In this document: positions 6,505-49,769 of the stretch, in pieces | How the letters are laid out: each line of letters opens with the position of its first letter | How positions within the stretch are numbered: position 1 is the stretch's first letter | DNA from: Catajapyx aquilonaris | Lineage: Eukaryota | Direction: 5' to 3' | Assembly (NCBI GenBank): GCA_000934665.2 | Contig: KZ538749.1 | Location: 1 to 49,769, forward strand | Length of the DNA stretch: 49,769 nt | Translations under genes and position numbers: made by a program | The notes under the pieces: generated by a model | What the model was told of the DNA's origin: nothing | The model's database searches: none | Seen by the model: only the letters and a program-made list of their open reading frames with translations

Positions 6505-8899
6505 TTAAAATGCAAGGACAGGTATCACGATCTGTCCATCAGTCCAGTGCTTAGAGTTTTACTCTTATTCCTGTGGTGCTTTAGTGTTGCATCTGACTCA
6601 GTGATGACTGCATTAAAAAGTGTTTGTAATAAAAAAATTATAAGCATATTTTTATGGATAAAGGTATGGTGACACAGCTTGAGAAAAACCATCACGTTAA
6701 ATACCAAGCGTCTGTTCAACCTCATCTTATAACAGCATCCCTCTCGACATGTGAAAACGTGGTACAATGTGCACACATTTGAAATAGTGAAAATGAGTTA
6801 ACTCTGAAGTTGAGCATTTGTTAAAGACATTGTTTTCATCCTCAGGTGCCCGGACAATCATCGCCTTATGCAGCCCTTAATCCTGAGGCAGAAGTCCTGC
6901 GAGCAATTGAGACTCTCCCCTGTCCATGGTAGTGAGGTGGCCAAGGACCACTCTGTTCCGGAATGGCAAGGACAAGCAGCACCTCAGCGTTTGGTGATGG
7001 GTGATCATGGACATCGCTGAAATGGCCGACTTCTTTCTGACCCCACAGTAAAATGAACTTACCAGGGGAGGCTGTGACAAAGGAAGAGAGCCGGAATTCC
7101 AATCATTCCCAATTTTTCTGAAAAATTCTGCCGGGGGGGAGAGACAAATGGAGACCAGTCTTTCCTCTCTATTATCTTCATTTCTGTCCCATCTATGCGT
7201 TTACTAATAGCCACAGTTGCTATGGTTCCTACCGACTCAAACAAACGAACAACATGCTTGCCCTATTCAATATAGTCGCATTTGCTTGGAAAAGGGATTT
7301 GAAAAAAAAAAAAAAAAGCACACAAGTTTCATGGAGCAACATGCCAACCTTGCCCTGTGAATCATATGTGACTTGATGGACAAAGTCAAAGTTCCTGCCC
7401 TTGACTTGTATGGAAGGACCTGATGGACGACATGAGGAGGAGGCCTGTGGGAGGGAGGGAAGGGAAGGGCTTCAATCCCCTAACCATCAAGAGATCCCTT
7501 GCGGGGTACTGGCGGGGACGACGTGAGGGTAGCAGTTGGGAAGAAGACCCATGGGCCTGGTTGCCACCATCATTTGAGATGACTAGACGTACTCATTCCC
7601 ACCTGTGAGAGGATACAAAATGCTCGAAGAACAAGTCTGCGGTGTCTGCGGGTTTCCTCTGGCAATGTGCGAATATAATTTTCTCAAGGGACTTGATAGA
7701 ATAATACCAGATGGCAGAGAACATTAATTAAACACTCAAGCTGTACTCATATGAGGCTTGCCACAGCAAAAAGGCCCATGTACCAGTAATCGTTATTTTT
7801 GCAGGGGAATAGTTTTTTACTTCTGTCGAAATGTACAACTTTTAACCCTTTTGTCTCCCGCTCGATGTTGCACTCTTCAGGTGGGGGTTTAAAAAGAGCG
7901 CCCTAGGTGAAAATCACTGGATCTGGCACCATTGGTTTCACTCCCGATTCATGCACAAGAGGGGGCTGAACATTGCGAGACATACCAACCTACGGTGCAT
8001 ATCGGGAGAGGGCATCAACAGCCTCATAATATTATTATACTATGCACAAGATGGTGACGTCATCTACACGGTTTTTCATAGGCGGCTTCTACCCATCGAA
8101 AATATCCAAGAAAATTCTACATGGTTGCCCGGTCTCTCTGATGAATTATGAAGTCATTAGTGTCCAGCTAAAAAATTTTTAAAGGTCCACTTTAAAAGGA
8201 AGTAATGTGATCCTCCAGGTGCAAAGAAAAGCAGGCTCAGGTTGCGAGCCGGCAACACGCAGTGCTCTGAGCAGTCCGCCTGACCAATTAGGAGCGCGGA
8301 CACTCTCGCCGACCAACATGGTGCTGGGTTTTTTTTGCCTACCGATCACTGATCGTTCTGATTTTTTCCCCGGCGAAATGTATGTTGTAGAATTTTGGGA
8401 TTTTTAAAATGGTTTTCAGATGCACTTGCACATACTGGGAAATATGTGGCAGGGAGATGTGTGCATTTAAATTCATCCAGTAACTGTTTGTTGCAGGTTT
8501 TTTGAAGTGAATGAGGCCATTGGCTTATGACGTCGTGCTATTAAAAATATCACGTGAGTGGCGTAAATACTCATGAACGTTTCTTAAGGCTATGGTGAGA
8601 GAAATTTCTATCGTGGTTATACCAATGAATTTTAAAATATGATTTTGTTTGGTTGTATTATAATACAATCAAATCGGGTGCGGGACCAAAGGGTCCAGGA
8701 ATGACGTCTTTTATTGACGGATACAACGTCAATGCAGCGTTCAAGTCCACAAAGTTTTCCACTGCGTGGAGATTCTTTGGTGGCTTCAGGTGGCACCAGA
8801 GGGAACCCACTTGACCCCGTACATTCCTAATCTGATTTTGGGTTAAATGGATCATTATTGTTGTAGTTGTCTGTGATGCTCTTGCACCTGGTGTACAAT

Positions 8900-9345
8900 T
8901 AAGGTCCCCTTTCAAGGAGGCATCTTTCCTCCTCTTTGGAATGACAATATCACTGTTATTGGCCATGACCTCCATCTTTACATCAAGTCGGTGGATGCGC
9001 TGGAGAAGTCCCTTGACGCTGAAGTTCACTTTCGTTGAAAAAATACTGGTCATCCTTCTCATAGTACGAAACAATAATTCACATTGTTGTGAATCAAACC
9101 ATGGTGGATGCAACTTTTCCAAAACCTTGGGCACAAAGAGTACTCACACTAAAATTAGGCTGGGGGCATTTATTTCAGTTCCAAAATATGCATTTGTGGA
9201 AATGAAGTTTTTTGATGTGGTGCAATGTGACTCAGACTGGGAGAAGCTCGCCCAAGATATCAGTATAAAAACTGCTGTCCAGATTAATTCGATTCTTTGT
9301 AAGGCCGAGGTAGGTTTTCCACTGAAGGAATCCAGTATGTAGTAT
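8900..9345 (-). pseudogene. P-element-related transposase fragment (C-terminal catalytic region)
   Basis: RIELIWTAVFIL..W...NFISTNAYFGTEINA, then after a stop PPWFDSQQCELLFRTMRRMTSIFSTKVNFS, matching the SQxxExxFxxxR motif of P-like transposases. Confidence 0.65.
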
Positions 9346-9529
9346 TCAACTTCCAATCACTCGCATCTAGTGACCATATTCCTACCTGAACCTGGCATGT
9401 ATACAGATTTGAAGTCCACTGATCCTGGTAACCCCCTATCAGTTTCATCCAGGGTTGCTGTAGGATTGGGCTTGTGGCTCCAATCTTACCACTGCAATTC
9501 GACAGATGTGTAATATACACATTTTCTAT

Positions 9530-9850
9530 TGGTGGGCTAATGCAAACGTACAGATCTTCTGGTTTTATTTGCAGAATGCTGCAGGGAGTCATATTCTCCC
9601 AATCTAATGCATGCTCTTTCACTCCCCTGTCCTGTAGAAATCTGACCACATGGGAGTGACCACAGGAAGCAGACCTGTGGGTCATAATCCCCCCTATCCA
9701 CTGCATTCACCACCACTCCCCTGTCCAGGAGGAAGCTGACCACATGGGAGTGACTACGATCAGCAGCCAAATGGATCCCACTCCACCCAGTCCTCGGATC
9801 AACCGTGCCATCCACGTCTACTCCCTTCCTGTCCACACTGTCTTTAGGTA
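9530..9850 (-). pseudogene. Ankyrin-repeat fragment, copy 1
   Basis: GVDVDGTVDPRTGWSGIHLAADRSHSHVVSFLLDRGVVVNAVD, frameshifted into GHSHVVRFLQDRGVKEHALDWENMTP. Confidence 0.85.
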
Positions 9851-10501
9851 CGCAGTGCACAATCCCACTGTTTCCCACTCCATCCCAACCCACATATTAC
9901 AGACACAGAACGTTAACATTGGACACAAATCCATTCTTGTGTGCTTGAAATATAGTTTGGATGTGCAAATGAAATGTGAGAGTTAGGATGTCGTCGAAGG
10001 TTTATGGGGGTGTAGTGTACACTCTGTGAAGATGAATGGGCTTCAAACTGATGATATGAAGTGTCTAGTGTGTGTTCCACACTTACCCATAATATTGTAT
10101 AATGCGCTCTTATTACTAGTGCTAATCGTAACGAGGCTATCCTGCAATAACCACATTCTCAACTTAGGCTTGTGGCTCAATAATCAGGAAATGTTAGTTC
10201 ACCTTAAACTTCAAAGTTAATCCCAAGAACATTTTCTGTTGTACTGAGGTCAAATAAGTATGCTGGCGGGAATGTGTCACGTGACGTGGTCTTTATTTAC
10301 TTGGAGTCCACCGTTCGTTTTCTTATTAATATTCAGAACTATTGTCTCAGGCTCCAGCCGTTGAACTCTACAAGCTTGTCGGCAGAATTAAGTTGGAATC
10401 TGGCCAGTTCCTCCACACATTTGGCTCCTACTTCAGTGTTTGACATCACAGTGTTGTGAATGTTCAACATTTTGGGTATAGTTGAATTCATGTCTGCCCC
10501 C

Positions 10502-10720
10502 TTACCCAAAGGAGGAAGTTGGACTTGTGGCCATTGAATGCAGCATGATCATATCCCCCCGATCCACTGCATCCACTTCCACTACCCTGTCCAGGAGGAA
10601 GCTAACAAGATGGGACTGACCATGATCGGCTGCTACGTGAAGCTCACTCCATGTAGTCCTCGGATCTACCGTGTCATCCACGTCCACTCCCTTCCTGTCA
10701 ACATTGTCCTCTACATTGGA
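10502..10720 (-). pseudogene. Ankyrin-repeat fragment, copy 2
   Basis: VDVDDTVDPRTTWSELHVAADHGQSHLVSFLLDRVVEVDAVD; DNA paralog of copy 1. Confidence 0.85.
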
Positions 10721-10799
10721 CAGAGATCCATACTTGCATGCATTGCAATATGTCTAGGAGTCCAAATGATATTGGAGGGTTAGAATATCACTGAAACTG

Positions 10800-11010
10800 T
10801 GTGTGGGTGTATTCCATGATTGTATCCCCCATGTTCACTGCATCCACCTCCAGTCCCATGTCCAGGAGGAAGCTAACCACATGGGAGTGACCATGATTGG
10901 CTGCTACATGAAGCTCACTCCATCCAGCTCTCGGATCTACCGTGCCACCCACGTCCACTCCCTTCCTGTCAGCACTGTCCTTCTCACAGGACAGATGACC
11001 TTCATGCAGG
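10800..11010 (-). pseudogene. Ankyrin-repeat fragment, copy 3
   Basis: GVDVGGTVDPRAGWSELHVAANHGHSHVVSFLLDMGLEVDAVN. Confidence 0.85.
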
Positions 11011-11399
11011 CATTGAAATATTTTCATATTGGATTATTGATATACTTTATACTCATTACCAATATGTAATGGCATTGCACTTCTTTCATTCACTTTTTGT
11101 GAGTTCATAAACTTTCCTGTACTCTGTAAAAACCAACACTGAAGCCATGATTTTTTTAAAAAAAAACTAGTGCTACTATTTGCAGGGGAGCAAGTTCACT
11201 AAACTTCTAGCCCAAATACTGACTAGTAGTTTGAGGTCCAAATGAAATGGATGGATAAGAATATCGACTAATATGTGTCTTACTGTATTACGAATAGGGC
11301 CCTACTTGGCCATACTCGAGTACCTTTGGGCGTTTGCATATGAAGAGCCTTTTCTTGAGCACGGACTGCTGTTACAAGCTCGCCTCCTGTGTATAAGTT

Positions 11400-11580
11400 G
11401 GCCAGTTCTTGAAGAAACGTGAAGATGTTACCATTAAGGCCTGGTGTATGGTCGGATCAAATTATCTCCTGCGATACCAGCCCACATGCTCATACCAAAC
11501 CTTGACTAATGTCCATGATGGCAGACCTAATACTATTTTCAGTGTGACTTTTGACCGTGGGTTCCACTTACCCCAGTGTA
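11400..11580 (-). pseudogene. Tc1/mariner-superfamily transposase fragment
   Basis: HGH*SRFGMSMWAGIAGDNLIRPY, then frameshift to LNGNIFTFLQEL; resembles the 'RFSVNVWAGI..D.LIGPY...LNG..Y..FL' block. Confidence 0.55.
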
Positions 11581-11984
11581 CCTTACATCTAGTGCTTAAT
11601 TAAAATGATTTTCCGCTTTAGTTGTCAAGGTAGATGGCATGCTTCCGGAAGGAAGTTGAAGGTCCAGATTAAGTATATTTGGCCAGCATGAAAGTACTCC
11701 ATATTCATCAATGTTAATAACTGGTAGCAAAGTTGAGAATGTCTTTCCGCCTGTTACACTGGAATGGCAGTAAGAGCCGTTTGTTAATGTATACCTGATT
11801 TTGACCCGTTGGTAGACGGCTCCTCGTCACCTCTGGGGGCTTTTATTTAAGGTTGAAATATGCGACAAGCATGCAGCTGAAGTCGTGCCCACAATTAATT
11901 AATTACTATCTAGATTCTAGATCAACCATGAAATGCACAGCTATTTAGAAATTATTGTACAACCCCATATGATAACGTGGTCTA

Positions 11985-12275
11985 TCAGTGGGCTAATGCA
12001 AACGTACAGATCTTCTGGTTTTATTTGCAGAATGCTGCAGGGAGTCATATTCTCCCAATCTAATGCATGCCCTTTCACTCCCCTGTCCTGTAGAAATCTG
12101 ACCACATGGGAGTGACCACGGGAAGCAGATCTGTTGGTTATAATCCCCCCTATCCACTGCCTTCACCTCCCCTGTCCTGTCCAGGAGGAAGCTGACCGCA
12201 TAGGAGTGACTATGATCAGCAGCCAAATGGATCCCACTCCACCCAGTCCTCCGATCAACCGTGCCAACCACGTCT
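11985..12275 (-). pseudogene. Ankyrin-repeat fragment, copy 4
   Basis: Near-identical DNA to about 9530-9815; GWSGIHLAADHSHSYAVSFLLDR with the same frameshift. Confidence 0.85.
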
Positions 12276-12279
12276 GACG

Positions 12280-12710
12280 CTAGAGTTCGCAACGCTCTGC
12301 CGGAGTGTCAAGCACAACGAAGGACAGCCCTTTAGGCAAAGCTGGAGTAATTTTGTGAATTAATTCAGAGAGTAAACTTGGTGGAACAATAGCTGGGTGA
12401 AGCATGGCCAAACTGGCCTGTTGGCCTGCAGGAATAAGTAGTCCCAGAGAATGTCTCAACTGGCCCAAAACAGAATGGAGCATTCTAGTGCACTTATGAA
12501 GACCCACATTCGTCAAGGTAGTTGACACAAACTGGTGTGTAAGGTGTTGGAAAACATTATAAATATGAGTTGTCAATTCGGCAAGTTGGTTGGCAACAAG
12601 GTTGAGTGCCTGTGTGTTATTGGCTACTTGTGAATTTAGTTAAGAATGGTTGGTTGTAATTTTTGCGCGTGGACGAGTTTGTTAGTGGTCTGACGTAAGC
12701 CATTCTCGCT
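12280..12710 (-). pseudogene. Envelope fusion glycoprotein fragment (errantivirus env / baculovirus F-like)
   Basis: Heptad-like NKLVHAQK...QVANNTQALNLVANQLAEL followed by LHPAIVPPSLLSELIHKITPALPKGLSF, resembling the 'LHPxIIPPxxLxxxLxxIxxxLPxG' block. Confidence 0.65.
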
Positions 12711-12954
12711 GAAAAACCTTCATTGTAGTCACCAATGCATATTTCTCAAGACACACAAAGCAACGAAACTTCTAGAATTTCCTAAGATGTATTTGAACGA
12801 TTATAAATCAGAATCACAAACTGGCATGTTTGGTCCTTCTGGTGATACTCTTTTTTTTAAAAAAAAATAAAAATCCAAGTGTGCATTTATTACTGAAAGT
12901 ACAATGTTGACAAGCTGGAATAACAGCCACACAAAATTACTGGTACAAAATGTC

Positions 12955-13250
12955 CAGTGGAAGGACTCCAGCGAGTTGTTAGTTCTGCGCTGGAGTACAA
13001 AACACTGAGAATCCCTCTGAGCCCACATTCACCATCCGTTGCTGATGGATGTAGTTCAAAAATGTTGCACTAATTTTCCCTACGCCCACGCTACCCGCAT
13101 GGGATCTTATTGCAGCAAAGGCCTCCTCGATGTGGTCTGCTGGCATGAGAACCACTACTATGGTCATGTTGATGACCCGCTTCACCTCTTCGTTGGTCCT
13201 GGCCGCAGACCCAGATTTGTGACTTTTCTGCAGATGGCCTGATGGGACAT
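12955..13250 (-). pseudogene. MULE (Mutator) transposase fragment
   Basis: HQAICRKVTNLGL...LMPADHIEEAF...FLNYIHQQ...GFSVF then RRTNNSLESFH (RTNNxxEx(F/W)H catalytic-E motif); frameshifted. Confidence 0.8.
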
Positions 13251-13384
13251 AAGTGTCTTGTTAAATGAAGCTCCCCTATCAGTTCGCAGTCATTACAAGC
13301 ACTACCATGGGGGGTCTGATTTTGGGTATAATTGTCTGGAGGAACTGACTCTTCGTATATTTTCTTTGCGTATGTGGTGTAAGG

Positions 13385-13500
13385 TCAGTGACGTGCTGTG
13401 CACCTGGCAGACCAGTGAAGGGCTGGCCTTCCCTCCACGTCCCTCGCGTCCACCTCTTCGTGTCCAGTCGCGTCCAGAAGTGACCGACGGATGTACACGT
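13385..13500 (-). pseudogene. Ankyrin-repeat fragment (divergent, copy 5)
   Basis: SLLDATGHEEVDARDVEGRPALHWSA fits ankyrin consensus LL..GADVNARD..G.TALH.AA. Confidence 0.6.
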
Positions 13501-13549
13501 TGCTGACTTGAAAATTGCTAGCTATACCAGGTCCCATTGATGGCAGGCC

Positions 13550-13700
13550 TGGCACACTTAGGTTTTTCACGACGTGGTTTGCACACTCAATCTTTTCCAC
13601 TTGGAATCCATACGGTACATCCTCTACTCCAGGCACTTCCATATGTAAGGCATAGGCCTCTTGAATTTTATTCAACTCCTCCACCATCTGTGGCATTGAT
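13550..13700 (-). pseudogene. Mutator-like transposase fragment (YqaJ-associated type)
   Basis: VPYGFQVEKIECANHVVKNL matches the PYG..VEKIEC.NH..(K/R)N motif. Confidence 0.7.
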
Positions 13701-14944
13701 CTGCCATAGCAGGGGAATGGCTTTTTTTTTGGCGCGAGTAAGTCTACTGCCTTTATAGATTCCTATGCATGAGGCTCTCCACTTTTACATCACATTGACA
13801 TTACGAGTCATGTAAGATAAATGAGATTAAAGGTCATAATTGCAGTAAATGAAATATTGGGAATGTAATGAGTGTTATTATATGTGTTGTTATGCCATAT
13901 GTGGCATGACAAATATCCACCGGCAACGGTAAAATTTTCAATCGCCTTTGCAAAAGTAGTTTGTCATTAGCTCTGGTACTCGTAACACTCAATAGCATAC
14001 ACTCTTTGCCATTTTACATACATGTCATTGCAGCAAAATATTTTTGTCTGAACTATGAGCAAGCAGTCTGTGGAGTGAGGTCGAACAGTTCATTAACACT
14101 TTGCAATATATAATTCCTTCACTTGAACAATTACTTATGTCACTTGAACACTAAATATGCCGAAATTGCTCTAATATATTTACACATAAGCGAGAGAGAG
14201 ATGGTCACTTGAATATTTAACATGCCGAAATGACTTGATAATATACATACGCAGATAGAGATTACTGTTGCAGTAACGAGCACTATACTAATGGGCACTG
14301 GCACTGTATCGTAACTGTGTTGTCACTAGGCGCACTTGGTACACTACTGGACGGGCTGGATCCGGATACAGTTGGAATGCGCTAGTCCGGGGCACTGCAT
14401 GTATTCACTTCATTCGTAGAATGTACAGAAGTCATCCATGCAACCGAACCTCCCGACTTGGTGGTGACGTATATGGAGATCGCACATTGCCCAGCCTTGT
14501 CCATCGGTGTTTAAATGTTCCAATAGCTCCTGTCGGCAGACGCCTACCAGATTCTGATGCGGTGGTCCCGGATGGGCATCGCTCTCATAGTACACTGGAA
14601 TCCTCTTCCTGTCTGTCTGGATCCCGGCGTCCACCAACACAAATCCTTGGCTTGTTCCAGATGCATGTCGCCAGCCAGCACAAGCACACCACCAACATTA
14701 ACATGATTGTGATCTGCCACATAGTTATAACGTACTATATCTGTCGGGTACACACAAAATACGGTATTAGCAGGACTCGTGGCTCATCACCACGCACTTA
14801 TGCTTTCCATCTAACAGTTTGGTGGTATTCTTATATCATTCGCACAGCGCCTACCTGGGCAGTTGCTATTGTCACCATGTTTTTCATCTGCATAATATAT
14901 CAGTATCGTTTTTTTGAACAGAATCAACAATGCATGAATACATT

Positions 14945-15400
14945 AATGATAATCTTCATCCTCAACCTCTGGTGTAACACACATGCTACTAGGCTTTGGT
15001 AGTAACCCTGTTTCCTAGCATCAATGTACTACATTAGTCCCAAAACAGCATTTAACTTAGCTTCCTTTATTGGCAACTGTTCAGTATAAAGTTCCTGTTG
15101 TGGTGCTGGCACTCTTCGGATGTTAGGTTTAATGATACGAAACATTGTCACGATTGAGGCTTGAAGTGTGTGACTCACTGCTTTACGGCAATGTCATAGA
15201 TGTGTGTAGAATCAAAAGCAATGAACTTGTACTTAGTTACATGAACCTCCTCCTCAAATCGCTGATTGCTTCTGCATCATCTGCCATGTTGCGCGAGTGG
15301 CGCCCCTCACGGACTTCACAAGAAAGTCGACAGTAATGATATGACAAAGGTCCGAAGTCCTCCTTTGACAACTCATGAGATATTTCAACATTTTTTTTCA
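14945..15400 (-). pseudogene. Sola-type transposase C-terminal fragment
   Basis: QELYTEQLPIKEAKLNAVLGLM*YIDARKQGYYQSL followed by an acidic tail, resembling 'Y...PI...K..D...L..YI.....FY..L'. Confidence 0.55.
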
Positions 15401-15690
15401 ACACATCGTGCGTGTCACTCAGCTAGGGAACTGCTCGGACGGTTCCTAGCTGATTTCGCTGGTAGAGACTGGAAATGTGTGTCCATGACACCATATCGCC
15501 ATTGATCACGTAGTCGTGAACAAGGAGGTTGTTCCGGATAGATAGATGGATAGATGTTTATTATCCCTGAGCACCTTACAGTATATACAGGGAGACTTCC
15601 CTTACATGCATTTTACTTTGCACCACCATATTCTGTAGTTTTCATACAGTAGTTTACTGCTGTTTGCAGTTCAATGTTACAGAACTTAAT

Positions 15691-15837
15691 GTATCAACAG
15701 TGCAAAAATAACTGTCCCAGTCATCCTGACGTGTGGGCTGGCCGCTCGACACACACCATGTAAGTTACATGGTGTGTGTCGAGCGGGCAGCACACACATC
15801 AGGATGACTGGGACAATTCTTTTTGAACTGATGATAC
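15691..15837. repeat. 147-bp palindrome (73-bp arms, 1-nt loop), probable MITE remnant
   Basis: GTATCAACAGTGCAAAAATAACTGTCCCAGTCATCCTGA...CACACCATGTAA-G-TTACATGGTGTG...TCAGGATGACTGGGACAATTCTTTTTGAACTGATGATAC. Confidence 0.85.
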
Positions 15838-16114
15838 CCCACTGCGATTGCGAAAAACGAATACATGTGATGTATTGCCTGTATCGGCATAGAGGCAAAC
15901 AGTGTGTGTGTCTTATTCGGTGGGAGTTCAGGAATACCTGCAAGAACATTTTTACGGATAGTAGAAAAAAACGTACAAATCGCAAATTAAATGATACAAG
16001 GTCCAGCTATCTCTGTTGTTGCATAGTGTACAACCAGAGTCCAGTGGGAATCGGAATTTGTCATTCTTAACATACAATGAGAAAGATAAGTGTCTGAAGT
16101 TACATACTAATCGG

Positions 16115-16330
16115 ACAAGCTGTAGTGGCATCGTAGAGAGCAATGATCTTCCTGCCGTCGAGGAGAAAATGGGGGTTCTCCATCGACACCCCCTTCTTAT
16201 TCTGGAACACTGCCCGGTTGGTCGGAGCCTGGTCACACACCACCGCCCGAACTACCAAACCAGTTTCATGCAGCTTCGGCTGCACTTGGTCAAGCAGCTG
16301 TATGAGTGCGACCTGTTCGCATGGATTGGA
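16115..16330 (-). pseudogene. P element/THAP9 transposase RNase H fragment
   Basis: KLHETGLVVRAVVCDQAPTNRAVF...GVSMENPHFLLDGRKIIALYD (catalytic D in VCDQ; ends just before the D(P)PH motif). Confidence 0.85.
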
Positions 16331-16459
16331 ATTTGTGCTGGAGGAAGTGTTTGGGTTGAATTACCTTCAGTGGATTAACCAAGCCAAAAAAAAAACTTAA
16401 CATAGGGAGTTAGAGAGAGCCTTAATTTCTCCATCATTGCGCCTTGTGTTTGTCCTGAT

Positions 16460-16730
16460 ATAATCTATGGAATGAATGGTCTTATCTCCCTTCACATGAG
16501 CTGCTAGAAACACCCAATGGTTACCATTTTACACGTAGGCAACAGCAGAAGTTCAATGTTTTCTGGTTTCCTGACACCTAATAATCTTTTAAAGGTCGTA
16601 CTGCATGGTCTTTTAAGGTACTTGTGTAAGTGAATTCCAGTCGTTTCAAAAAGGCTTCTATTATTATGCAGTCATAGAGCCATTCTACTGTATAATCAGC
16701 ATCTTTGGATTTGACAGGAGCAAATTCATT
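16460..16730 (-). pseudogene. Ulp1/SENP-like (C48) cysteine protease fragment
   Basis: EWLYDCIIIEAFLKRL ... IELLLLPTC (frameshift) GNHWVFLAAHVKGDKTIHSIDY; WLxD and HW motifs of Ulp1 proteases. Confidence 0.6.
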
Positions 16731-22630: not shown

Positions 22631-22999
22631 GCGACTAATTAATGCAGTTTGGTTTAGCGGTACGATGCTAGTTCCTAACCCGGACACACAAGAGTCAGAC
22701 AATTTGTCACTTTTAATGAGGTAATCCCTGATATTCTTAATGGTGTCATGCATGTTTAAATGCAACATATTGTTAATGTTTCCAACAATTCCAATTTTGC
22801 CACTTGATGTTACATAACTACCATGTTCAATTATTACAAGTGGATAACGGTCTTATTTTACCTGGGTTTTTGGAACATTTTGCATTTCTGATAATTATTT
22901 ACGATTGATATATTGATAAATATTAATGAATCCTAACCTAACAAATTGACCTCCAGGAATGTTAACAACTTTTCCTTTTAAACACACCTGGGAGTCTGT

Positions 23000-23455: not shown

Positions 23456-23459
23456 TGCG

Positions 23460-32230: not shown

Positions 32231-32346
32231 AATTTTTTAAATTGTGGTTGTGTTTATGCTTAAACTGCTCAGAATTGTGTGCTGAGGGTTGGTTCCTTAT
32301 TGTTCCTTAACACCGTCCAAATATTTCACATATATACGTCACATAT

Positions 32347-32589: not shown

Positions 32590-32772
32590 CCTCCCACCAC
32601 GCGAAGCATGAGCAGACACCTGCTCATGGCTCCATAAAACAAGGGAAAATGACCCAAAACAACCACAATGAGAACCAGGAAAAAAATGAAGAAAAAAAAA
32701 CACACAACTGATCCCACCACCAAAATAACCCACTGTCCACAGCACTTCCACCACTGTCCATTTTTTTTTCTA

Positions 32773-36350: not shown

Positions 36351-36759
36351 GTCGATAGGAGCCGTAACCCATGTCCATGTTGACCAGTTCGGTACAGACT
36401 GTGCAGAACAGGTGGAGTGATGCTCGGGATTTGCGTAGAAGGGGAGACCCTACCATAAAATGGTGAGGGAAAAAAGCAACGGTGATAGAGAAAAGGCGTG
36501 GTAGGGGAGAAATGTGTGGAAGGACCGACATACGGACACAACCCACGAAAATAACCCNNNNNNNNNCCCCCCCCCCCCAAAGCAATAACGGAACAAGCGC
36601 CCCTAAAGGCAAAGCAACCGAGAAAAAAGAGAGATGAAAAAAAATAAACTAAAGCAAGTACTTCGAGCTGCTAATTACGCACCCTATGACCAGTTCATAA
36701 CCAGCAACTACTCAAGTATCCGCTCCTACTAAAGTAATAGGAGTCACCCCCAATGAAAA

Positions 36760-37070
36760 CGAAAGAAAAGCGCCAAAAGGCAAACCCTCCGAAAAAAAGT
36801 CATGCAATTTTACTACTTGCATCTCACAGCCCCGTGCTAAAGTGAAACAGTTGTAATGGTGATATCGCTCACTGGATGTAGACTGTAGCACAAGGTATAC
36901 TTCCTTTTTTAGGAGATGTAAATCTGTAATAATCCAGAACACTGGACAGTTGTTGTCCACCAACACCAAAGTCATGCCGCAGCTGTTTCGTCTCAAAGCG
37001 AATTGTGCTGCAATTAAGCAGGGGTCCATATGTCATCATTTCTGGGTAATGAGTTTTAACCTAACGAACC
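36760..37070 (-). pseudogene. EnSpm/CACTA (animal type) transposase C-terminal fragment
   Basis: THYPEMMTYGPLLNCSTIRFETK matches 'HYP..I...GPL...W.MRFEAKH'; downstream DNNCPVFWIITD...YHHYNCF. Confidence 0.7.
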
Positions 37071-40000: not shown

Positions 40001-40179
40001 CTGCAACCTTATTTACCCCAACTTGGAACTTGAACTTGACCCCCGGAGTGAGGACTCCAACAAATACCAGACGATAATGAGCCACCAACAGAATCAGCAC
40101 TGTAGGAACGAAATTGAAAATACGAGGCAGAAATACAGTATTGGGAGGGAAAGCTAGTCGCCAAAGTGGCGACTTGCCA

Positions 40180-41130
40180 TCTTAAGTTGAAGGCAAGCCA
40201 CGATAAGAAAGTTCAGGCAACGATTGCGGAAATCGGTGATGAGTCCGGACGTTGCAGAATTCCAGGGTCTTCTAGTTGCTTCATCACTCCAACCCCCAAG
40301 TACACCTAAAAGACCATAACAGGGCAGTGCATGACCCTCTGCAGATTATGTGAAGCATGATGAGCGCACATAGTTTACCTGGTTCAATGGGAGGAAAACC
40401 TGCGCCTGTACCTCTGGGGCAGGGTTGGGGTTGATGTCCGCCAAGGGCGTCCTGCAGACGTGTTGTCGCTTCATATATGTCATAAGAAGGTCCTTATATG
40501 CCTCCGGCATTCTTTGGTGCAATGAAGTTACAACAACCTATAAGAGAGAAAGAGAGAAAGCACGATAAAAAGTATTTAGAATATATCGTGAAATCCTTCA
40601 TTACAAATTAAAATGCAATTACCTTCTCAGACTGGAAGTATTCGATCATTTTGGTGAACTTCGGTAGCGCCCAAAGGAGGAACTACAGATAATATGCCTT
40701 GATAAATGGGTTGTGGAGACGAGCGTTCGCAAAAATTCTGAAAGTGAGCCAGCATGCAGAGACGCTTTGAGGAGTTCTTGAAGAAGGCGTAGATGTCACG
40801 CGCAAGCTCTTCGGCCTCGCGAGGTATCTTTTTGCAGGCCTCGCTAGCCACCAGATGCACGGAATGGCATATGCATTTCATAACAGTAATTCCAGGACAG
40901 AGGGTCATGAAACGTGTCATCACAGAATTGTGACATCCCATCATCACCTTACACCCATCACTTGCGAAGTTGTGGTGAATATTTGACATTAAAGATGTGT
41001 GGCACTTAAACAAGAGGTCAAAGGCTTTTAATCAATTTTCTCCAACTTGCATGACTTCATGTTCCAACACAATAAAAAACTTAGTCATTCATTTTGTTGG
41101 ATCCCACCGCCAAAATATACGGTTGCGTAA
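40180..41130 (-). pseudogene. Intron-containing hAT transposase fragment (ZNF862-like)
   Basis: FASDGCKVMMGCHNSV...KCICHSVHLVASEACKKIPREAEELARDIYAFFKNSSKR; further exons AYKDLLMTYM..FLPLNQ | VYLGVGV..DFRNRCLNFLIVAC with a GT..AG intron at about 40380-40307. Confidence 0.9.
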
Positions 41131-41359
41131 CTCCATCTGTTTTATCCTTGGCCACTCTGGAAATATCCGTGCCAACCTGTGAAAGACACACACTCTAAAA
41201 TAATTTGAGTGAAATTAAAACGAGTTAGTGTATTTTAACCCATCTCAAACCTTCAGAATGGATGTCCTCAAATTTCAGTACATTGTACGCAATGGCTCGA
41301 GTAAAATTTTCAGAACTCAGAAATGTTGTGACAATAGGTACTCCTACTATTAGTCCCGG

Positions 41360-41662
41360 ATGTACGTCCAGTGTTACAACACGTTGTTCTCGGGGACAGG
41401 GACTCATTACAACAATGAGGGGAATGGAATTACTAGAGACGCGTACGACAAGGGTTACACCCTCTATGCTTTCGACATGACTCCCGACCTAACAGGCAAC
41501 AATGCAACGCACTGGAGCCCCATAAAACAAGGTAGTCTCCGAGTGGAGTTGGGATTTGCAGAACCCCTGCCGAACGCTGTAAACTGCATCATTTACGCCG
41601 AGTTTGATTCGCTGCTTCAAATAGACAAGGCTCGCAACGTTTCTCTTGAGATGACAGCTTGA
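41360..41662 (+). pseudogene. Polinton/Maverick major capsid protein, C-terminal fragment
   Basis: YNTLFSGTG...GNGITRDAYDKGYTLYAFDMTPD...GSLRVELGFAEPLPNAVNCIIYAEFDSLLQIDKARNV, the conserved C-terminus of Polinton PY/F54H12.2-like double jelly-roll MCP. Confidence 0.9.
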
Positions 41663-41669
41663 GACCGAC

Positions 41670-41830
41670 ATGAATGGGTTGCAAATTATAAGTCTTCTGA
41701 AACCGCCGCTGTCTCGTATTTTTCGCGGTGTTTACTCTGCGGACACTCTCCCGCGATATGTAAATTTACCCTGCGCTTTAATTGTTAATAGCGATAGAGC
41801 CTCGGAACCAACAGCATGGGAGTTGCTTGC
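41670..41830 (+). pseudogene. Polinton adenain-like cysteine protease, N-terminal fragment
   Basis: MNGLQI...FRGVYSADTLP...PCALIVNSDRASEP directly after MCP; broken at the G.HW motif. Confidence 0.85.
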
Positions 41831-42460
41831 TGGCCACACTGGCCACACTCAGTTGTAATGTCCCACACCTCAGGGAAGAATATCTGGTTTATGTGCGTCC
41901 TTGCAAATCCGGGGTAGCACGTCACGTCCACGGCCATCATGTCATAATGGCCGTATAACGCTGAAAGAGCGTGGTCGATGCCCACCTCATGGACGGTAGC
42001 TTCCACCACATCTGACACCGTCATATGTAGGAAAGTGAACAGAGCTCCCGTCTTGGCGCAGAAATGGATCGATCCGAGACCTCCATCGCCCTTCAGACCT
42101 GGCCTGCTTTCTCTGAAGGTGTGGCCTCCAAATTAGTAGGCTTTCTCTACGTTGGTCATGACCTCGTAGTGGTACGCGATTTTCACTCGATCTCTCTTGG
42201 CTGCCATGGATGCTGAACGGTGTTCCTTGACAGAATGAATGTATGGGTGGATATAAGGGAGTGACAGGGAGTGTTGATGGGAAATTACGGATAAGGTTAG
42301 AGGGAAGGACCAATGGGAATTGACTCCATAATTTCTAGGGGTTGATAATAAATCTGAAACGGTTACTTGAAGATTAGTGATGGCATGTGGAAAATTGTCT
42401 TCGCTGGGGCAATAAGTTCATCGCTAGGGTCCCCTGTTCTAGAATAAATCAATCACTGGG

Positions 42461-44960
42461 TTAATATAAAAAGTAAACATCTGTGACGTCGGCATAATCT
42501 ACTCGCTCGCCATCGACAGGTTTGTAAAAGAGTTTGTACGCCTCAGTCCTTCCTCCCATTAGGCTTTCCCTAGGATTTATTGGCTCCATGCAGGCAGGCA
42601 GGGTTGAAATAAATGCACGGAGCTCAGTATTTACTCTCATTTCCGCTCTAAACTTACACTCCCACATTACGTTAAATTCTACATTCCCAAGCCGTTTAAT
42701 AACACTTTCCCTCTGCATTGTACGTTGGTACCTGACATCCATAGTTGAAAATGGGTCTTCCTCTAACGACGCCCTGCGATTCGAGAAGCATATAGGACAA
42801 CCATGATAATAGCAACCGTAAAACACGTAAATGTGCGTGACGTCACCTTCCCGTAAGTATCCATCAACCTTGTATCTCATTACCCTCTCTTCAGCCAGCC
42901 CCATTCCCATTTCAAAATCGCCACATCAGATGAGCAATAATCCACTAACTGATCCCTAAGAATGAAGCCGCCATCTTCCAACCTTTCCTTCTCAACAGAA
43001 TGCCAAGTTAGGAACCTCTCCCTTTTACATTCATGCTGTCGGGATCGTAAAATGACACATCCGGCAAGGGACCCACATAATTCAGATTATCAGAACGATT
43101 AGCCAGATAAGGGAAATAGCCCTTCTTTAATTCTGTAAAACCAAAGACCTTGGGAAGCTCCGCTAAAGGCATAGGTAGAAAATTAGCACTATCCTTGTAC
43201 GTTACGTTTCCGTCGCTCATACACATTACCTTCAGACCATTCGCAATAATGGATGGCTCCCTACCTTGTCCCGTTACCAGCTCTCTAAGTATGAACTGAC
43301 CGTCGAATCCCTTTAAATTGTGGGCAATGACAATGACATCTTTAGCTTTACGCATGCCCCTTACATATTTGACAAAATCATGTAGCGCTGAAGAGCCATA
43401 AAACGTGTTCTTTCGTACCCCTCACTTAACTACACAATTCAGGATGGTTGCGATCCTGAGTGGTCTCTATATCAAAAAATATGAACACAAAGTCTGCTCC
43501 TTCCTTCTCTTTCCTGAGTTTCTTTTTTAAAGGCTCACCTACCCTCTGCAAATGTTTTGGAAGGTAACGCTCCAGGTGGGGAGGGGTGGTATATGGGCGT
43601 ATAAAACACATGTGCCCTGTCCGCACCATTACATTACAAACTTTACAGTACCTTTCGCCACAAACCTTACCTCGCTTGACCTCGCCTTACCTCGCTTTAC
43701 CTCGCCTTACCTCGCTTTCTCATGTCGATCAGAGACGAACATTTCTTGCACACAAAGAGAGTCTCGCATAAAGAAAGGGAAGCAGCATTGCTTACCAAGT
43801 GTCGCTCAAAGCATTCGATGCCATAAAAATCTCTGGAACAGTATTTACAATGAATAATCCTCGAGTCACCTTTACAGTTGGAAGCATCAGCACTGCATAA
43901 GCTTTTACAAAAGTGATTGCTCTCAGTTCCCTTCATGCAAATCATGCAAAAACTCTTAGTTAATAGCATAGCGGCAGGTGAAGTGCTAGGATTAAAATGT
44001 TCTAATTTTTGAGACCAATACAAATACAGGTGGATCCTGGGATGCTCTGTCGTGGACTCAGGTCCTTGTAGACCCATTCTTTCCCCTCGTCGCTAAATAC
44101 ACATATTCTATAACCTTTTAAATACTGTTGATACATGCGGACCTCCTCCCAAAGTACACCCATCGGTAGGAACCACCACACCCGCCGCTTCGGATAATTC
44201 ATCTGCAGCCTCCTTCTGGACGTCTGGATGACAAATATCGCGGGAATTATCTTTAAACTTATCATCAGATTTAACGATAGCTACGACAAGTGCTCTAGGA
44301 AGACATAGGTTGTCGCTGCTGCCTATTGACACTATAGAGCCTAGGACACTACACCTGTCTACATAATCAAACGTCTTAAAAATCTTGTAATTTTTGCGAC
44401 CACCCCCTGCCATGGCTGAAATATGAACTATATTAATCTGTAATATTCCACCCTCGGGTGAAATAACATTGGACCCTCTCTCAGATTGTGCAGCCGACTC
44501 CACCTGCAGTAAAATTGCGTTAGCGTCCAGCTGAGAAGCTCTCCTTGGATGTATAAAAACAGTATCCACACTAGACCCTCCTCCCCCTCCTCGTATCAGT
44601 TCAAGCTGTATGAAATCCCTGTCGTCGATTTCTACACGTCGTGTTCTGATGTACGCAATAATGCCCTAGACTACATTCCTTAGCCAAAAGAGGGGTGTGT
44701 TCGGGGACGGGGTCAATTCTGAGCGATATTTCCATAGCCGCGGTGTTAAGCCGCCTTAATTGGATTACATTTTCCCCGATTAACCTGAATCCATTGCTTG
44801 CACCAGGTGATGGGGAGGATGACGAGCTGGAAATTACTGGTGAATCAGAGGCATCTCGTACTGGGGAGGGCGGGGGAGTTACCCTTTTTCTCTTTTTCGG
44901 TGGGAGGGACTTTTCAGGCGGGGGGCTTACGGTGGGATTAGTCGACCTGACCTTTCTTTT
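42461..44960 (-). pseudogene. polB: Polinton/Maverick protein-primed DNA polymerase B, frameshifted and truncated
   Basis: DNLCLPRALVVA (OTU-like), Cys clusters, Exo I FIFFDIETTQ, Exo II IAHNLKGFDGQFI, DSANFLPMPLAELPKVFG..KKGYFPY, KVDGY..FYGCYYHGCPIC insert, PRESLMGGRTE, YADVT. Confidence 0.95.
43665..43718. repeat. 10-bp tandem repeat inside polB
   Basis: About five copies of CCTTACCTCG variants. Confidence 0.8.
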
Positions 44961-45576
44961 TTAAAGAGGCAATGCATTTCTATTAGAAGTGGTGGTCACA
45001 TGGGGGGATGAGGAACTTGCAATGTTGCCTCTGGTTACTGTAGGGGATATGATGGGTGAAGTAGGCATCCTGGAATGATTAGTGAGGTCAATAGCCTCTG
45101 GTAAAGGGGTTCATCACCTTCTCCGAGTGCCTGAAATCTTCCTTGGGAAAGAAATTGTGGAGGAGAATGAGGCATGTGTGGGGTGCTCTTCTTCCTCATG
45201 GTGGTCCATGCACCCCCTTTTCCCTGACTTCTTGTCGGGGCGCGAGCTGTAGGAGGTAAATTATCATTAGTGCAGGCAGGATAGCTGGGTGCCGGCGTCG
45301 TAGCGGTGGATTGAGCTGTCGAAGGGATATTAGTACTGGCAGGTTGCATAATAGCTGATTGCACTGTGCCGAGAGCTGCAGGGGGTATATTATCATTAGT
45401 GGATGGGGTGCATGTATGGGGTCGACCTTGTATTGGGTTCGGAGCGGGTGCGCTGAAGTATGGAAACGAGAATGCCGGTGGTATCAATCCAGGTGGAGGT
45501 ATGGGAAGAAAACCTGGTGGTGATGGTGGTGGTGGTGCGTTAAAAAACCAAGGTGGAAAGCAAGGGGGGGGGGGGG

Positions 45577-45656
45577 NNNNNNNNNNNNNNNNNNNNNNNN
45601 NNNNNNNNNNNNNNNNNNNNNNNNNNNNNNNNNNNNNNNNNNNNNNNNNNNNNNNN
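45577..45656. other. Assembly gap (80 N) within poly-G
   Basis: N run flanked by G tracts; a 9-N gap also at 36558-36566. Confidence 1.
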
Positions 45657-45744
45657 GGGGGGAGGGTTCATAACAGGTGCTAGGGGGATCAAAGCAGGGT
45701 ATGCAAGTGCTCCTGCTGAAACGCCGAAGACTCTCTGATGCCCA

Positions 45745-45995
45745 ATTTTTTTTTTGGGAGATGCAGCCTTTCCCCTAAAGACTACTCTCATGCGGCCATT
45801 TCCGGGGGAGAACTTGGATGAAGGAGTCAAGAGAATATTTAATTACAGACTGTCCAGGGAAAGACGCTGCATCGAGAATGCATTTGGAATCCTCAGTGCC
45901 AGGTGGAGAGTATTTGGACGACCCATGGGACTTGACGTGGACAATGTGGATAGGGTAGTTGTGGCAACAGTTGTTCTCCATAACTTTCTCCGCTC
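45745..45995 (+). pseudogene. PIF/Harbinger transposase fragment (DDE_Tnp_4)
   Basis: GDAAFPLKTTLMRPFPG...RIFNYRLSRERRCIENAFGILSARWRVF...VATVVLHNFLR. Confidence 0.95.
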
Positions 45996-46212
45996 CTGCA
46001 GCCCACGTCTACGCAGCCGGTCTTGGCCTTCAGAAGTGTATGTCATGCGATCCACATGCAATAGTATCGTTGTAAGGTCTTGTGTGCCGCCCGAAGCTAT
46101 TTAAGAGAAGAGTCTTGTTGTAAAATAAACATGGTCCATGTGCATCCAAATTTAATTTTTCCCTTATTCACAATTACTACAAATATATGTAAAACAAACA
46201 AATGGATATCAA

Positions 46213-46870
46213 TTAACAATCTTCAGCTTCCCTTTGGCACTCCACCAAAATCTGATCAAGCCTGATCTTCATGTCAAAATATTGGTTGCGTGGCAAGCTC
46301 CGCAACACGCGTACCACGTGAGCCCCATACGTGTCGTACTCATCTCCCTTTTGGCAGCACATTATTTGTCCTTCATTCTCTTGCAGTGCCGATGAAATAG
46401 AGTCAATCGATGAGCGGAGGGCTTCAGTGGGACCCCTTCTCCGCCCGAAACGCAGGCCCTGGTCCATTTGAAGTAGCTGTTGGGAATGTCAGTGGTGGTG
46501 GTGGTTGTCGGATTGATGTAGGTGGTCGGCCCATTGCTGCTGCCGGGGTTGAAGATGAAGGAGGAGGGGTTAACAAAGTAGGTGGTGGGTCTAGGGATGG
46601 AAGTGAGAATGTGGTAGGATCTGGGTCTGAAACTGGGGATGATTATGAGGCGGTTGGGGGTGAGGATGGCAATGGACCTAGATAATTGGAATTTTGAAGT
46701 GTGATGGGGATAAATTCATAGGGTGGGTGGGTGGGAGGAGGCAATGGTAAGTGAGCTGCCTTGCGTATCACATGGCTGCGTATCAAATGGCTCCGTCTCC
46801 TCCCTATGAGAGGCAGATTCCGCCATATGCTGCCCATGCACTGAGTGAGTGGGTCTTGAGACCTCTGCAA
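46213..46870 (-). pseudogene. Harbinger ORF2 (MADF/BESS-like) C-terminal part, convergent with the transposase
   Basis: Pro/Ser-rich linker then GDEYDTYGAHVVRVLRSLPRNQYFDMKIRLDQILVECQ*. Confidence 0.7.
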
Positions 46871-47003
46871 ATGAAAGCACTTTGCTTAATTATTCTATTA
46901 AATAATTTCCTGTGATGTGTATCGATCCAGTGATCAGTAGGCCTACCCAGGCACATGCGTGCCACCCACAATGTTCAGCGATTCAGACTTACTTTGAATA
47001 TAA

Positions 47004-47162
47004 AGGTGCGTTTACATGTGAACGATTTGACAAGCGAAGCGGAGCGATGTCATCGCCGAGTGACATAACCAATATTGTTTGAGGTGAAAGTAACAATATT
47101 GGTTACGTCACTCGGCTACGACATCGCTTCGCTTGTCAAATCGTTCACATGTAAACGGGACT
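47004..47162. mobile_element. Tourist-like PIF/Harbinger MITE
   Basis: TAA-AGGTGCGTTTACATGTGAACGATTTGACAAGCGAAGC ... GCTTCGCTTGTCAAATCGTTCACATGTAAACGGGACT-TAA; 3-bp TAA TSD. Confidence 0.9.
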
Positions 47163-47359
47163 TAATTGCCTACATTCACACATTCTCATAAATTGCATAA
47201 TAAATTGTGTGCATTTATAACAGACAAAACATCTTGACTTTTGACAGAGTTTAATATCAAATTTACAGACAATACAGAGTACCAATGATACTTACAAAAT
47301 TCAAATAACCGTAGAAATTGTTTGCTAATGTATACAGAAAACGAGAGACCGATTACGTG

Positions 47360-47600
47360 AACTTCTGTTTCCTAACTTTCTTAGAAGCAAAGTCATTGAT
47401 TACTTTATCAAAGTTAATTCGTCGAGCCATCTCTCTATTTTTTATTGACAGCAAAGCTAGATTGCTCAGCCTTTCCTGTCCCATTGTGTTTCGTAGGTAA
47501 TTTTGATCAACTTCAATTTTTAAATGACCGTTCGGCCTTAGCTACAGTGACAGGAACTGTCAAGTACATAATACAGGCTGTACACACATCAAGATCACGA
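47360..47600 (-). pseudogene. hAT C-terminal dimerization domain
   Basis: YLTVPVTVAKAERSF(fs)KLKLIKNYLRNTMGQERLSNLALLSI...INFDKVINDFASKKVRK. Confidence 0.9.
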
Positions 47601-47754
47601 GGACGTCGAGAATGAATGCGGAGAGGACGGACACGCGAGACTTCCCGCTGATGTCCACGAGTACTAGGATGTTTGTTGATCCTACGAAAAATTAAAAAAA
47701 AAAAAGGGTTTAATATCTCGGTAGCAGTGTGAGCAGACAATCTTTATAAAAACG

Positions 47755-48092
47755 AAGGTATACGTACCTGTGTAGATGTAAAGTCTTTTTGGAAGCAAAA
47801 TTCACCCCACAATGCGGGCATTTCCGGTCTGCCATCCGATCACGGACCGAGGGACAGTACAAGTCATAAGGGAATTTCTCAACATTTGAGTGCGACGGTC
47901 TCAGCGTGATGCACTGCCGAACCAGAAGTGGAGCAAAGCTCTCATTGGTGTGCACTTCCGGAGGAGGAATCACCAAGTTGGTTCCCTCTTGCAGCAATGG
48001 AAATGGCGCAGGAAGAAACCTTTGGTAGAGCAGCTGACGCAGACTGCTTCTGAATGGCGTGCAGCATGTCGCCACCTCACACTTGACTATCT
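47755..48092 (-). pseudogene. Zator-like transposase C-terminal exon
   Basis: IVKCEVATCCTPFRSS...RFLPAPFP...PYDLYCPSV...RKCPHCGVNFASKK..H, preceded by a polypyrimidine-AG acceptor. Confidence 0.65.
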
Positions 48093-49769
48093 GAAATAGA
48101 AAAAAAAAGTTTAAAGGTATTTGAAAGTACAAATTTTAAAATTCTGTCTATAATATTGAAATGCTTGCGGTGTTTGTATAAGCCTCTCCTTCCCCACTCT
48201 GACAAGCTGGGCACTGTGATCTATGTTTTGAGCCCTTTGCTTGTCAGGAGGAGACGTCGCCGCAACTTCTTTGCTGGGAAGAGGGAAGATAATATGTTAC
48301 CAAGCTGACTTATCAGTTCAAACAGTTGACTCTTACCTGCAGCAGCAGATTTTGATGCTCCTGAAGTTGGAGTAGACTTTGCTGCTCCTGAAGGTGATGG
48401 AATGATAATAACTACCTCGTCAGGACATGGCAGCTTCTCCAGGATCACAGATGGCAACTTCCACCACATCTATCGGTGTCAGCTCACGTGACGCCGCTGT
48501 GATCCGTGGAGTTGGCTGAGGTGTATGCCTGCACTCATCTGCCCTGACTCTCTGCAGAGCCTTCTGCATGGCTGTATCACACCATTCTTCTCCTACGACC
48601 CCTTCAGACGACTCCTTTCCAAATAGTTGGAGGATCTTCTCCTCCATATCTGTTGGACATGGCTCGAAGAATGCAAAGTAAATGCCATTTGTCACACAAG
48701 GAACCAAGCCACAATTGTCTCAAAGGCGCTACATTTCCCACGTTATAACAATAAATGCACTTTTTAAAATAAACGGCACGGGGTGTGCGCAAGTGCCCGG
48801 ATTTTAGTGAGAAAATGATATTGTGGCCGGCCGACAACCCTTGCTCCTTCCGGTTCGGGCTGGCCATCATTGCCATCATCACCCCTGCCTCGCCCCTTAC
48901 CTTGCCTTCAACACACACTTTCACTTGTCCCTTCTCTGAGCTCAGGGAGCTCAGGGGGTTTACAAGTCAAATGGAGTAAACCAGGATGTTCACACCCCTC
49001 CCTATTCAACTGGCGACCACGAGAATCGTGGACGTCAAACACTTCCATTGGTTACACACATGATAATGACAAGGTACAAGCCAAATTGAAAACACACACT
49101 AGGACAATGAAGCAGCAACAACTAAGTAAGCAGTAGGCGACGACACTACATCACTTTCGAGTGGGGGGGGGNGGGGGGGTCGACAGACCAATGGACAGTT
49201 TCTTCAGGTATCACAAGACACATCACTTATCCCAGTATAGAGTTGTCTGCAACATATCACATACACATGAGCATGGTGTAACCGTATTCGGTTCAAAAAC
49301 GCTAGTGGGTTCATCGCTCAATACAGACTTTTATTTAGTACGAGTGTAGAGAGATATACGGAGAAAAGAGGGAAAATACCGGATAACATAGGTGAGGACA
49401 GACAGGAGGGAAATCGGCCCAGTGAACTACCCAACGACTGGCCATGAGTATCCGGAGATACCCCCATTTTATGCTATCCAAAACCCACTGCATGATGGGT
49501 GGAGTAGGGCATACTGAAAAGAAAGGGAAAGGGACCTTGAGCGGCATACCGCTCAGGGTGAAAGAAAATGAAAGTGATGGGGACTGCTTCTGTCACAATG
49601 GTCCCCAACAATGTGCTACTCATCGGAGGACGAGATGTCCACATCAATGACACCGTCACGGTTCGTCCCAGGGCACAGTGATTCAGATCCAGATAAAACA
49701 TGGACAAAAAGTATTTTTTCTAAATATGTGATTTTGAGTCAAAATCGAGTTATTCACATTCACAAATGT

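Follow-up and report, generated by a model that had tools for sequence, protein, structure and literature searches.

Decayed transposon and virus-like gene fragments mostly share one strand over about 40 kb of a Catajapyx aquilonaris contig: a candidate one-strand piRNA source locus

Here, we describe a stretch of 49,769 bases from Catajapyx aquilonaris (contig KZ538749.1 of assembly GCA_000934665.2, positions 1 to 49,769 of the forward strand; hereafter the window), in which decayed coding fragments of mobile elements and viruses, set as a patchwork between positions 9287 and 48719 as delimited by protein-likeness in 2-kb bins and by GC skew, are biased towards the minus strand. Its recognisable content marks the region as a graveyard of mobile-element and virus-like genes, which are truncated and riddled with stops. 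At least eight unrelated groups are represented, namely P element, hAT, Mutator-like, Harbinger, a Gypsy integrase, an envelope-like piece, a Polinton/Maverick remnant and a YqaJ recombinase, in addition to an ankyrin array. Within 8650-48710, 20 coding pieces on the minus strand (19 by Pfam, one by ESM Atlas) stand against three on the plus strand (two by Pfam, one by ESM Atlas). We tentatively propose that the region may be a one-strand source locus of PIWI-interacting RNAs (piRNAs) of the flamenco or mosquito cluster 38 type, loaded mainly with DNA transposons, a reading that we place first among the explanations considered and hold to be possible, though clearly short of probable.

Adjacent colinear matches of one family were grouped into loci. 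Eleven loci have coding pieces on the minus strand only, one on the plus strand only (the Harbinger DDE transposase at 45.7-46.1 kb) and two on both strands in convergent arrangement (Harbinger at 31.4-32.2 kb and Polinton at 41.35-44.1 kb). The 11:1 split of the single-strand loci has a two-sided binomial p of 0.006, and a count by genes (13:3) gives p=0.02. Setting aside the ankyrin array, which is perhaps not mobile, keeps p at 0.01-0.02, and so does setting aside the Myb and MADF pieces as perhaps orphan Harbinger open reading frames 2 (ORF2s). A first-pass annotation of this DNA had claimed that nearly all coding fragments lie on one strand, with about 37 on the minus and four on the plus strand; the direction of that claim is borne out by the 20:3 pieces and 11:1 loci (p=0.006), its strength of 37:4 is not, the supported minus pieces numbering 20 by Pfam and Atlas. 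The annotation had also named 14 groups, nine of which have at least weak support here; Sola, CACTA, Zator, Tc1 and Ulp1 are without a Pfam match, and the sole DDE_3 match (0.05-0.085) sits on the integrase ORF.

Fragments were identified with Pfam and, alongside it, the ESM Atlas. All 734 stop-to-stop ORFs of at least 40 amino acids on both strands were compared with Pfam at E≤0.01, after six ORFs running through N stretches had been dropped, and 348 ORFs of at least 60 amino acids at E≤1. Read-through translations, with X at stops, were compared with Pfam for the plus strand in three frames over 8650-48701 and for the minus strand over 16660-36686; minus-strand positions 8650-16659 and 36687-48701 were covered by the ORF-level Pfam scans. 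The deeper read-through on the plus than on the minus strand favours the plus strand, and the test for minus bias is therefore conservative. At equal depth, i.e., in the read-through Pfam comparison of 16660-36686, six loci were found on the minus and one on the plus strand. On these counts, the minus-sense bias is real in direction and continuous, and has about a dozen independent loci behind it.

The pieces on the minus strand are as follows (E-values are from ORF-level Pfam comparisons unless stated otherwise).

9540-12307, minus: ankyrin-repeat units in an array of four ORFs (Ank/Ank_4; Ank_4 5e-7 at 10505-10753 and at 10791-11033, Ank 1.8e-4 at 9540-9896, weak Ank 0.14-0.16 at 11996-12307)
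12283-12639, minus: envelope-fusion-like fragment of the baculovirus F/errantivirus env type, weak (Baculo_F 0.012, profile positions 170-276 of 609)
13388-13762, minus: Mutator-like transposase fragment, weak (Mutator 0.019)
16103-16360, minus: P-element/THAP9-type transposase fragment (TNP-like_RNaseH_N 3.8e-5)
22350-22526, minus: DUF7869 fragment, element type not assigned (0.0023 as ORF, 0.0012 in read-through)
23225-24127, minus: YqaJ-type viral recombinase/exonuclease ORF (YqaJ 1.4e-15, profile positions 2-148 of 150; read-through 1.9e-14)
26536-26754, minus: Myb/SANT-like fragment of the Harbinger ORF2 type (Myb_DNA-bind_5 2.3e-5)
about 29393-29479, minus: MADF (Myb/SANT-like) fragment (MADF_DNA_bdg 0.0013, read-through only)
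31943-32236, minus: Harbinger ORF2, Myb/SANT-like (Myb_DNA-bind_5 2.1e-12; read-through 1.8e-10)
34133-35125, minus: Gypsy/Ty3-type integrase remnant, core and C-terminal SH3 (SH3_Tf2-1 5.9e-5 at 34133-34339; rve 0.02 at 34297-34875 and 0.19 at 34838-35125)
40630-41031, minus: hAT-derived transposase fragment, DUF4371/ZBED8/FAM200-like (ESM Atlas)
43011-44092, minus: N-terminus of a protein-primed family-B DNA polymerase (polB) with an upstream zinc-finger region, Polinton/Maverick remnant (DNA_pol_B_2 2.6e-11 at 43011-43421, profile positions 4-111 of 468; zf-BED 0.014 at 43700-44092)
47356-47743, minus: hAT C-terminal dimerisation region, frameshift-split (two colinear weak Dimer_Tnp_hAT matches: profile positions 39-56 at 47516-47743, 0.16; profile positions 60-82 at 47356-47541, 0.15)

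The plus strand holds three supported pieces.

31368-31493, plus: C-terminus of a Harbinger/PIF transposase (DDE_Tnp_4 0.017-0.028, profile positions 116-158 of 158)
41354-41659, plus: double-jelly-roll major-capsid-like ORF, Polinton/Maverick remnant, convergent with polB (ESM Atlas)
45739-46101, plus: C-terminal half of a Harbinger/PIF transposase (DDE_Tnp_4 1.7e-13, Plant_tran 2.4e-5; read-through 5.9e-12)

The fragments form a dense array of 14 homology-supported loci from about nine groups over about 40 kb, and nearly all frames are broken by stops. Single pieces of many unrelated families make up this array almost without internal repeats in a self-BLAST comparison, and such a make-up is, by analogy, archive-like, as described for piRNA clusters. 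No long terminal repeat (LTR) pair and no terminal inverted repeats bracketing any of the larger pieces were found by self-BLAST. Specifically, the integrase remnant at 34133-35125 has no flanking direct repeats or LTR pair, and Pfam scans of ORFs and read-through translations gave no match at E≤0.1 on either strand to reverse transcriptase (RVT), RNase H, protease or gag. The ankyrin units are duplicated locally, with 94% nucleotide identity between 9525-9819 and 11981-12275 and 84% between 10544-10751 and 10815-11021, and the array looks like a decaying tandem gene or pseudogene rather than a transposon; it is not necessarily mobile. The hAT-derived fragment at 40630-41031, which has no relevant Pfam match, was identified by the Atlas at a recognition of 2916; the top named clusters have a score of 0.93, share 177 of 256 features and carry DUF4371 on 73% of members, and ten of the ten best matches have a family or clan in common. 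For the Myb piece at 26536-26754, no transposase partner was detected with Pfam in the plus-strand read-through of 24001-26402.

All three supported plus-strand pieces were among the four that the first-pass annotation had named, i.e., two Harbinger transposases and the Polinton capsid; the fourth, a protease just downstream of the capsid ORF, was recognised by eye and found no tool support. The annotation had further described the plus pieces as convergent partners of minus-strand ORFs. This applies to the transposase C-terminus at 31368-31493, which together with the Myb ORF2 at 31943-32236 makes up the convergent DDE_Tnp_4 and Myb pair of PIF/Harbinger elements, and to the capsid, which faces polB. 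It does not extend to the transposase at 45739-46101, whose minus-strand neighbour (46216-46488) has no Myb match in Pfam at E≤1. An 80-N gap (45577-45656) lies just upstream of this transposase, and the N-terminal half of the gene as well as the local order and orientation are therefore uncertain. Apart from the two Harbinger DDE matches, the three-frame read-through of the plus strand over 8650-48701 gave nothing in Pfam. In the ORF-level Pfam comparison, weak plus-strand matches to Zn_ribbon_IS1595 (0.044), Lock_Gag1-like (0.06) and Gag_p30 (0.23) were noise-like and were set aside. The longest open frame on the plus strand (14292-14999, 236 amino acids) has an unprotein-like composition and no Pfam match, and is probably a chance or antisense frame.

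The hallmarks of the Polinton are unevenly represented, with a polymerase N-terminus at 2.6e-11, a capsid that is a low-recognition Atlas lead and a protease recognised by eye alone. The top Atlas clusters of the capsid-like ORF score 0.98 and carry the annotations 'Double jelly roll-like domain' (PF21738, 45% of members) and Capsid_NCLDV (22%), and its Atlas neighbours are mostly Nucleocytoviricota; its recognition is just 1973, under the 2300 mark, and it has no Pfam match. Pfam and self-BLAST revealed neither an adjacent integrase nor terminal inverted repeats. The element at 41.35-44.1 kb would thus be a truncated Polinton/Maverick remnant at best.

A database-free test of composition points in the same direction. 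Each ORF was scored by the log-odds of its amino-acid composition under general protein frequencies against the six-frame background of the window. Scores of at least 5 bits were reached within 8650-48710 by 22 ORFs on the minus and four on the plus strand, and in the left flank by none and one, respectively. In 200 simulations that kept the strand-specific dinucleotide (Markov) make-up of each 2-kb block, the expectation was 3.0 such ORFs on the minus strand (maximum 7) and 1.1 on the plus strand (maximum 6); the observed plus count to be set against these is six, because Ns were converted to A there. When protein-likeness was summed in 2-kb bins, the minus strand exceeded the plus strand in 16 of the 20 bins over 8-48 kb; from 10 to 36 kb it did so in 13 bins without a break. 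The four bins of the left flank were balanced between the strands. The bias sets in near 9.3 kb and reaches about 48.7 kb, i.e., to about 1 kb from the right end of the window. Between about 10 and 44 kb, the plus strand shows negative GC skew.

Several protein-like stretches of the minus strand are without relatives. Deep searches of longer proteins returned no relatives among 458 candidates for the ORF at 8661-9143 and none among 409 for the ORF at 29993-30526, and a deep search with the read-through translation of 21668-22852 gave none among 1197. The read-through translation of 27895-29196 (434 amino acids) had no relatives at E≤0.001 in an exhaustive HMMER search of 1.84 billion representative proteins. 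A PDB sequence search yielded chance-level matches only for 8661-9143 (the best, to a kringle domain, at 0.01) and none for 42464-42925. The stretch 27895-29196 comprises four minus-strand ORFs in the same frame, next to the MADF match at 29393-29479. This arrangement suggests that 27895-29479 on the minus strand is one decayed MADF-type gene, yet no relative of its 434-amino-acid read-through emerged from the HMMER search.

If the region is a piRNA source locus, a single long non-coding precursor would be, or would once have been, transcribed from its plus strand. Any insertions with promoters, splice sites and poly(A) signals facing the opposite way would be tolerated or favoured, and the precursor would be cut into small RNAs antisense to the archived elements. 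Fragment content and orientation bias were observed directly; from these we infer, and only infer, plus-strand transcription, piRNA processing and a silencing role. The cargo would further imply that a flamenco-like layout is here directed at DNA elements (P, hAT, Mutator-like, Harbinger ORF2), a Polinton-type double-stranded DNA (dsDNA) virus and a YqaJ recombinase, and not at Gypsy-type retroviruses, a proposal that we regard as somewhat doubtful. The evidence fits a piRNA cluster without singling that reading out. How probable we hold each explanation to be reflects its fit to the 11:1 split, weighed against rough base rates.

A number of observations weigh against a piRNA source locus. Both Harbinger transposases and the Polinton capsid would lie in sense orientation within a plus-strand precursor, which would therefore supply no antisense guides against them. 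No upstream promoter or CpG-island-like feature was seen in the window sequence, whose CpG profile is about 0.65 throughout, and the AATAAA motif is only mildly rarer on the plus (20) than on the minus strand (31), too weak an asymmetry to use. Enrichment in Gypsy elements or errantiviruses is absent, the Gypsy-type content amounting to two pieces, the integrase remnant at 34133-35125 and the weak Baculo_F-like fragment at 12283-12639. The bias is nominally significant and falls short of overwhelming, given that this window was singled out in a scan of very large size. Loci defined by composition split from 18:4 to 9:4 depending on the merging distance, with p values from 0.004 to 0.27 at the coarsest merging. 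In addition, four of the protein-like minus-strand ORFs or ORF chains have no relatives, and part of the composition signal may therefore derive from purine-rich non-coding sequence rather than from decayed genes. Finally, the flam-like clusters of Drosophila span 227-1085 kb and are enriched in Gypsy elements, which exclusively drive their strand bias (PMC10643416).

Chance or intronic antisense bias is about as likely an explanation as a piRNA cluster. Chance by itself, i.e., an ordinary transposon-rich and probably heterochromatic stretch whose old independent insertions, some dozen in number, happen to agree in an orientation that nothing reads or selects, has a serious claim, and we consider it a little unlikely. 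The p value is 0.006 for 12 unambiguous loci, 0.02 for the 13:3 genes and up to 0.27 for the composition-defined loci. Such a window is to be expected many times where the genome is large and repeat-rich and the number of windows scanned is very high. The larger count of 37 fragments was moreover not reproduced, and all four deep searches with unexplained minus-strand ORFs came back empty. A mere coincidence of orientation is, however, harder to reconcile with the agreement, in direction and extent, of three partly independent measures (Pfam/Atlas matches, composition against simulations, base skew), with a bias that is unbroken over about 26 kb rather than scattered, and with the confinement of plus-strand coding to element types that have genes on both strands.

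Alternatively, the region could lie within a long intron or a long non-coding unit of a plus-strand gene, from which sense insertions were purged and in which antisense remnants stayed, with no dedicated small-RNA role; we judge this unlikely. Introns take up a share of animal genomes that far exceeds that of piRNA clusters, which counts in favour of an intron, and the somewhat lower number of AATAAA motifs on the plus strand would suit it as well. In mammalian introns, the ratio of antisense to sense elements is roughly 60:40, and the 11:1 split observed here, mostly among DNA-transposon fragments, is far above it. An exon-like Pfam domain on the plus strand was found neither among the ORFs of the whole window nor in the read-through of 8650-48701, a comparison that short exons, as well as exons beyond the ends of the window, would escape. 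Antisense bias of transposable elements in introns has been reported and ascribed to purifying selection (PMC3088655; PMC3517506; PMC1794541). The documented bias is, however, modest and limited to retroelements, DNA transposons having been excluded from that analysis (PMC3088655). Least convincing is a structural explanation, in which the pieces are not independent: most of the co-oriented genes would come from just one or two composite elements of very large size (a giant Polinton-like or virus-like insertion or a Helitron-type carrier), or insertions would be nested with an orientation preference. In its favour, viral cargo could account for the capsid-like ORF with its mainly nucleocytoviricotal Atlas neighbours, polB, YqaJ, the envelope-like piece and the ankyrin repeats. 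However, fragments of the P, Mutator-like, hAT (two to three pieces), Harbinger and Gypsy-integrase types lie in between these viral-type genes and do not make one element, 19 kb with unrelated fragments separate YqaJ from polB, and self-BLAST found no terminal inverted or long direct repeats bracketing the region. We consider the structural explanation very improbable.

The window as a whole has a G+C content of 42-55%, a CpG observed/expected ratio of about 0.65 throughout, 92 Ns (80 of them in the gap at 45577-45656) and, by self-BLAST, very few internal repeats. Reading frames on both strands are interrupted every few dozen codons, and the longest open frame measures 301 amino acids. It belongs to the YqaJ-type ORF, whose 301 codons form by far the longest intact frame of the window amid shattered surroundings; this ORF may be a younger insertion or may be under some constraint. 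Between the Harbinger ORF2 and the Gypsy integrase lies an island rich in G+C (32400-34000; 52-59% over 1-kb windows), in which both strands carry overlapping open frames, 100-249 amino acids long, with no Pfam match. Coding remnants were not found in the first 8.6 kb of the window, where palindromic repeats and a tRNA-Ser-like sequence occur instead. Four perfectly centred palindromes, each matching its own reverse complement, were noted in the window (3917-4770, 1748-2071, 15691-15837 and 47009-47157); the largest is about 850 bp long with 79.5% arm identity, and the remaining ones measure 147-329 bp with 83-90%. They could be foldback elements, elements resembling miniature inverted-repeat transposable elements, or hairpin-forming repeats. 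The tRNA-Ser(GCT)-like sequence at 5351-5422 on the plus strand (ARAGORN; Rfam tRNA, 39.7 bits) lies in the coding-poor left flank, and no other Rfam or tRNA match was obtained in the window besides this one, which falls outside the region considered here. It may be the head of a tRNA-derived short interspersed element, as the first-pass annotation had suggested.

If the piRNA source locus proposed here does give rise to plus-strand small RNAs, archives selected for orientation would not be limited to Gypsy-type retroelements in flies or to fragments of RNA viruses in mosquitoes, and would act on DNA transposons and an element resembling a dsDNA virus as well. The use of strand bias alone as a locus finder in genomes for which small-RNA data are lacking would then also gain support. 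One-strand piRNA clusters are already known, and it is the DNA-transposon-dominated cargo that would be unusual. If the proposal is wrong, the region cautions that chance, or ordinary selection within a transcription unit, can produce an orientation ratio of about 10:1 in a set of about a dozen fragments. Among the matches listed by a literature search for links between Polinton/Maverick elements and piRNA clusters, no title was directly relevant.

Three known systems invite comparison. With the antisense bias of transposable elements in introns, the region shares an excess of elements antisense to a transcription unit, there resulting from selection against termination and splice signals in sense orientation (PMC3088655, PMC1794541, PMC3517506). 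That bias is documented for mammalian LTR elements and long interspersed nuclear elements and is modest (PMC3088655), whereas our region holds mostly DNA transposons and no enclosing gene is visible in the window. Flam-like clusters of Drosophila were found de novo by strand-specific transposon coverage alone and then confirmed with small RNAs (PMC10643416). Like flamenco and these clusters, the region is densely packed with transposon fragments, mostly in one orientation; it differs in that about 40 kb are visible, which hold mostly DNA-transposon fragments and a Polinton remnant beside one Gypsy integrase and one weak envelope-like piece. Cluster 38 of Aedes aegypti is a unidirectional, flamenco-like locus of 143 kb that is rich in endogenous viral elements, in which fragments of non-retroviral RNA viruses are fused to transposons, and for which one long antisense transcript, phased piRNAs and a Cubitus interruptus promoter site have been shown (PMC7161354). 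The viral pieces of our region are, in contrast, apparently of dsDNA (Polinton-type) origin. Both loci carry viral and transposon fragments on one coding strand in a repeat-rich setting, which in the mosquito is intergenic, and the route from an antisense transcript to primary piRNAs proposed there (PMC7161354) is the mechanism that we infer for the region in Catajapyx aquilonaris.

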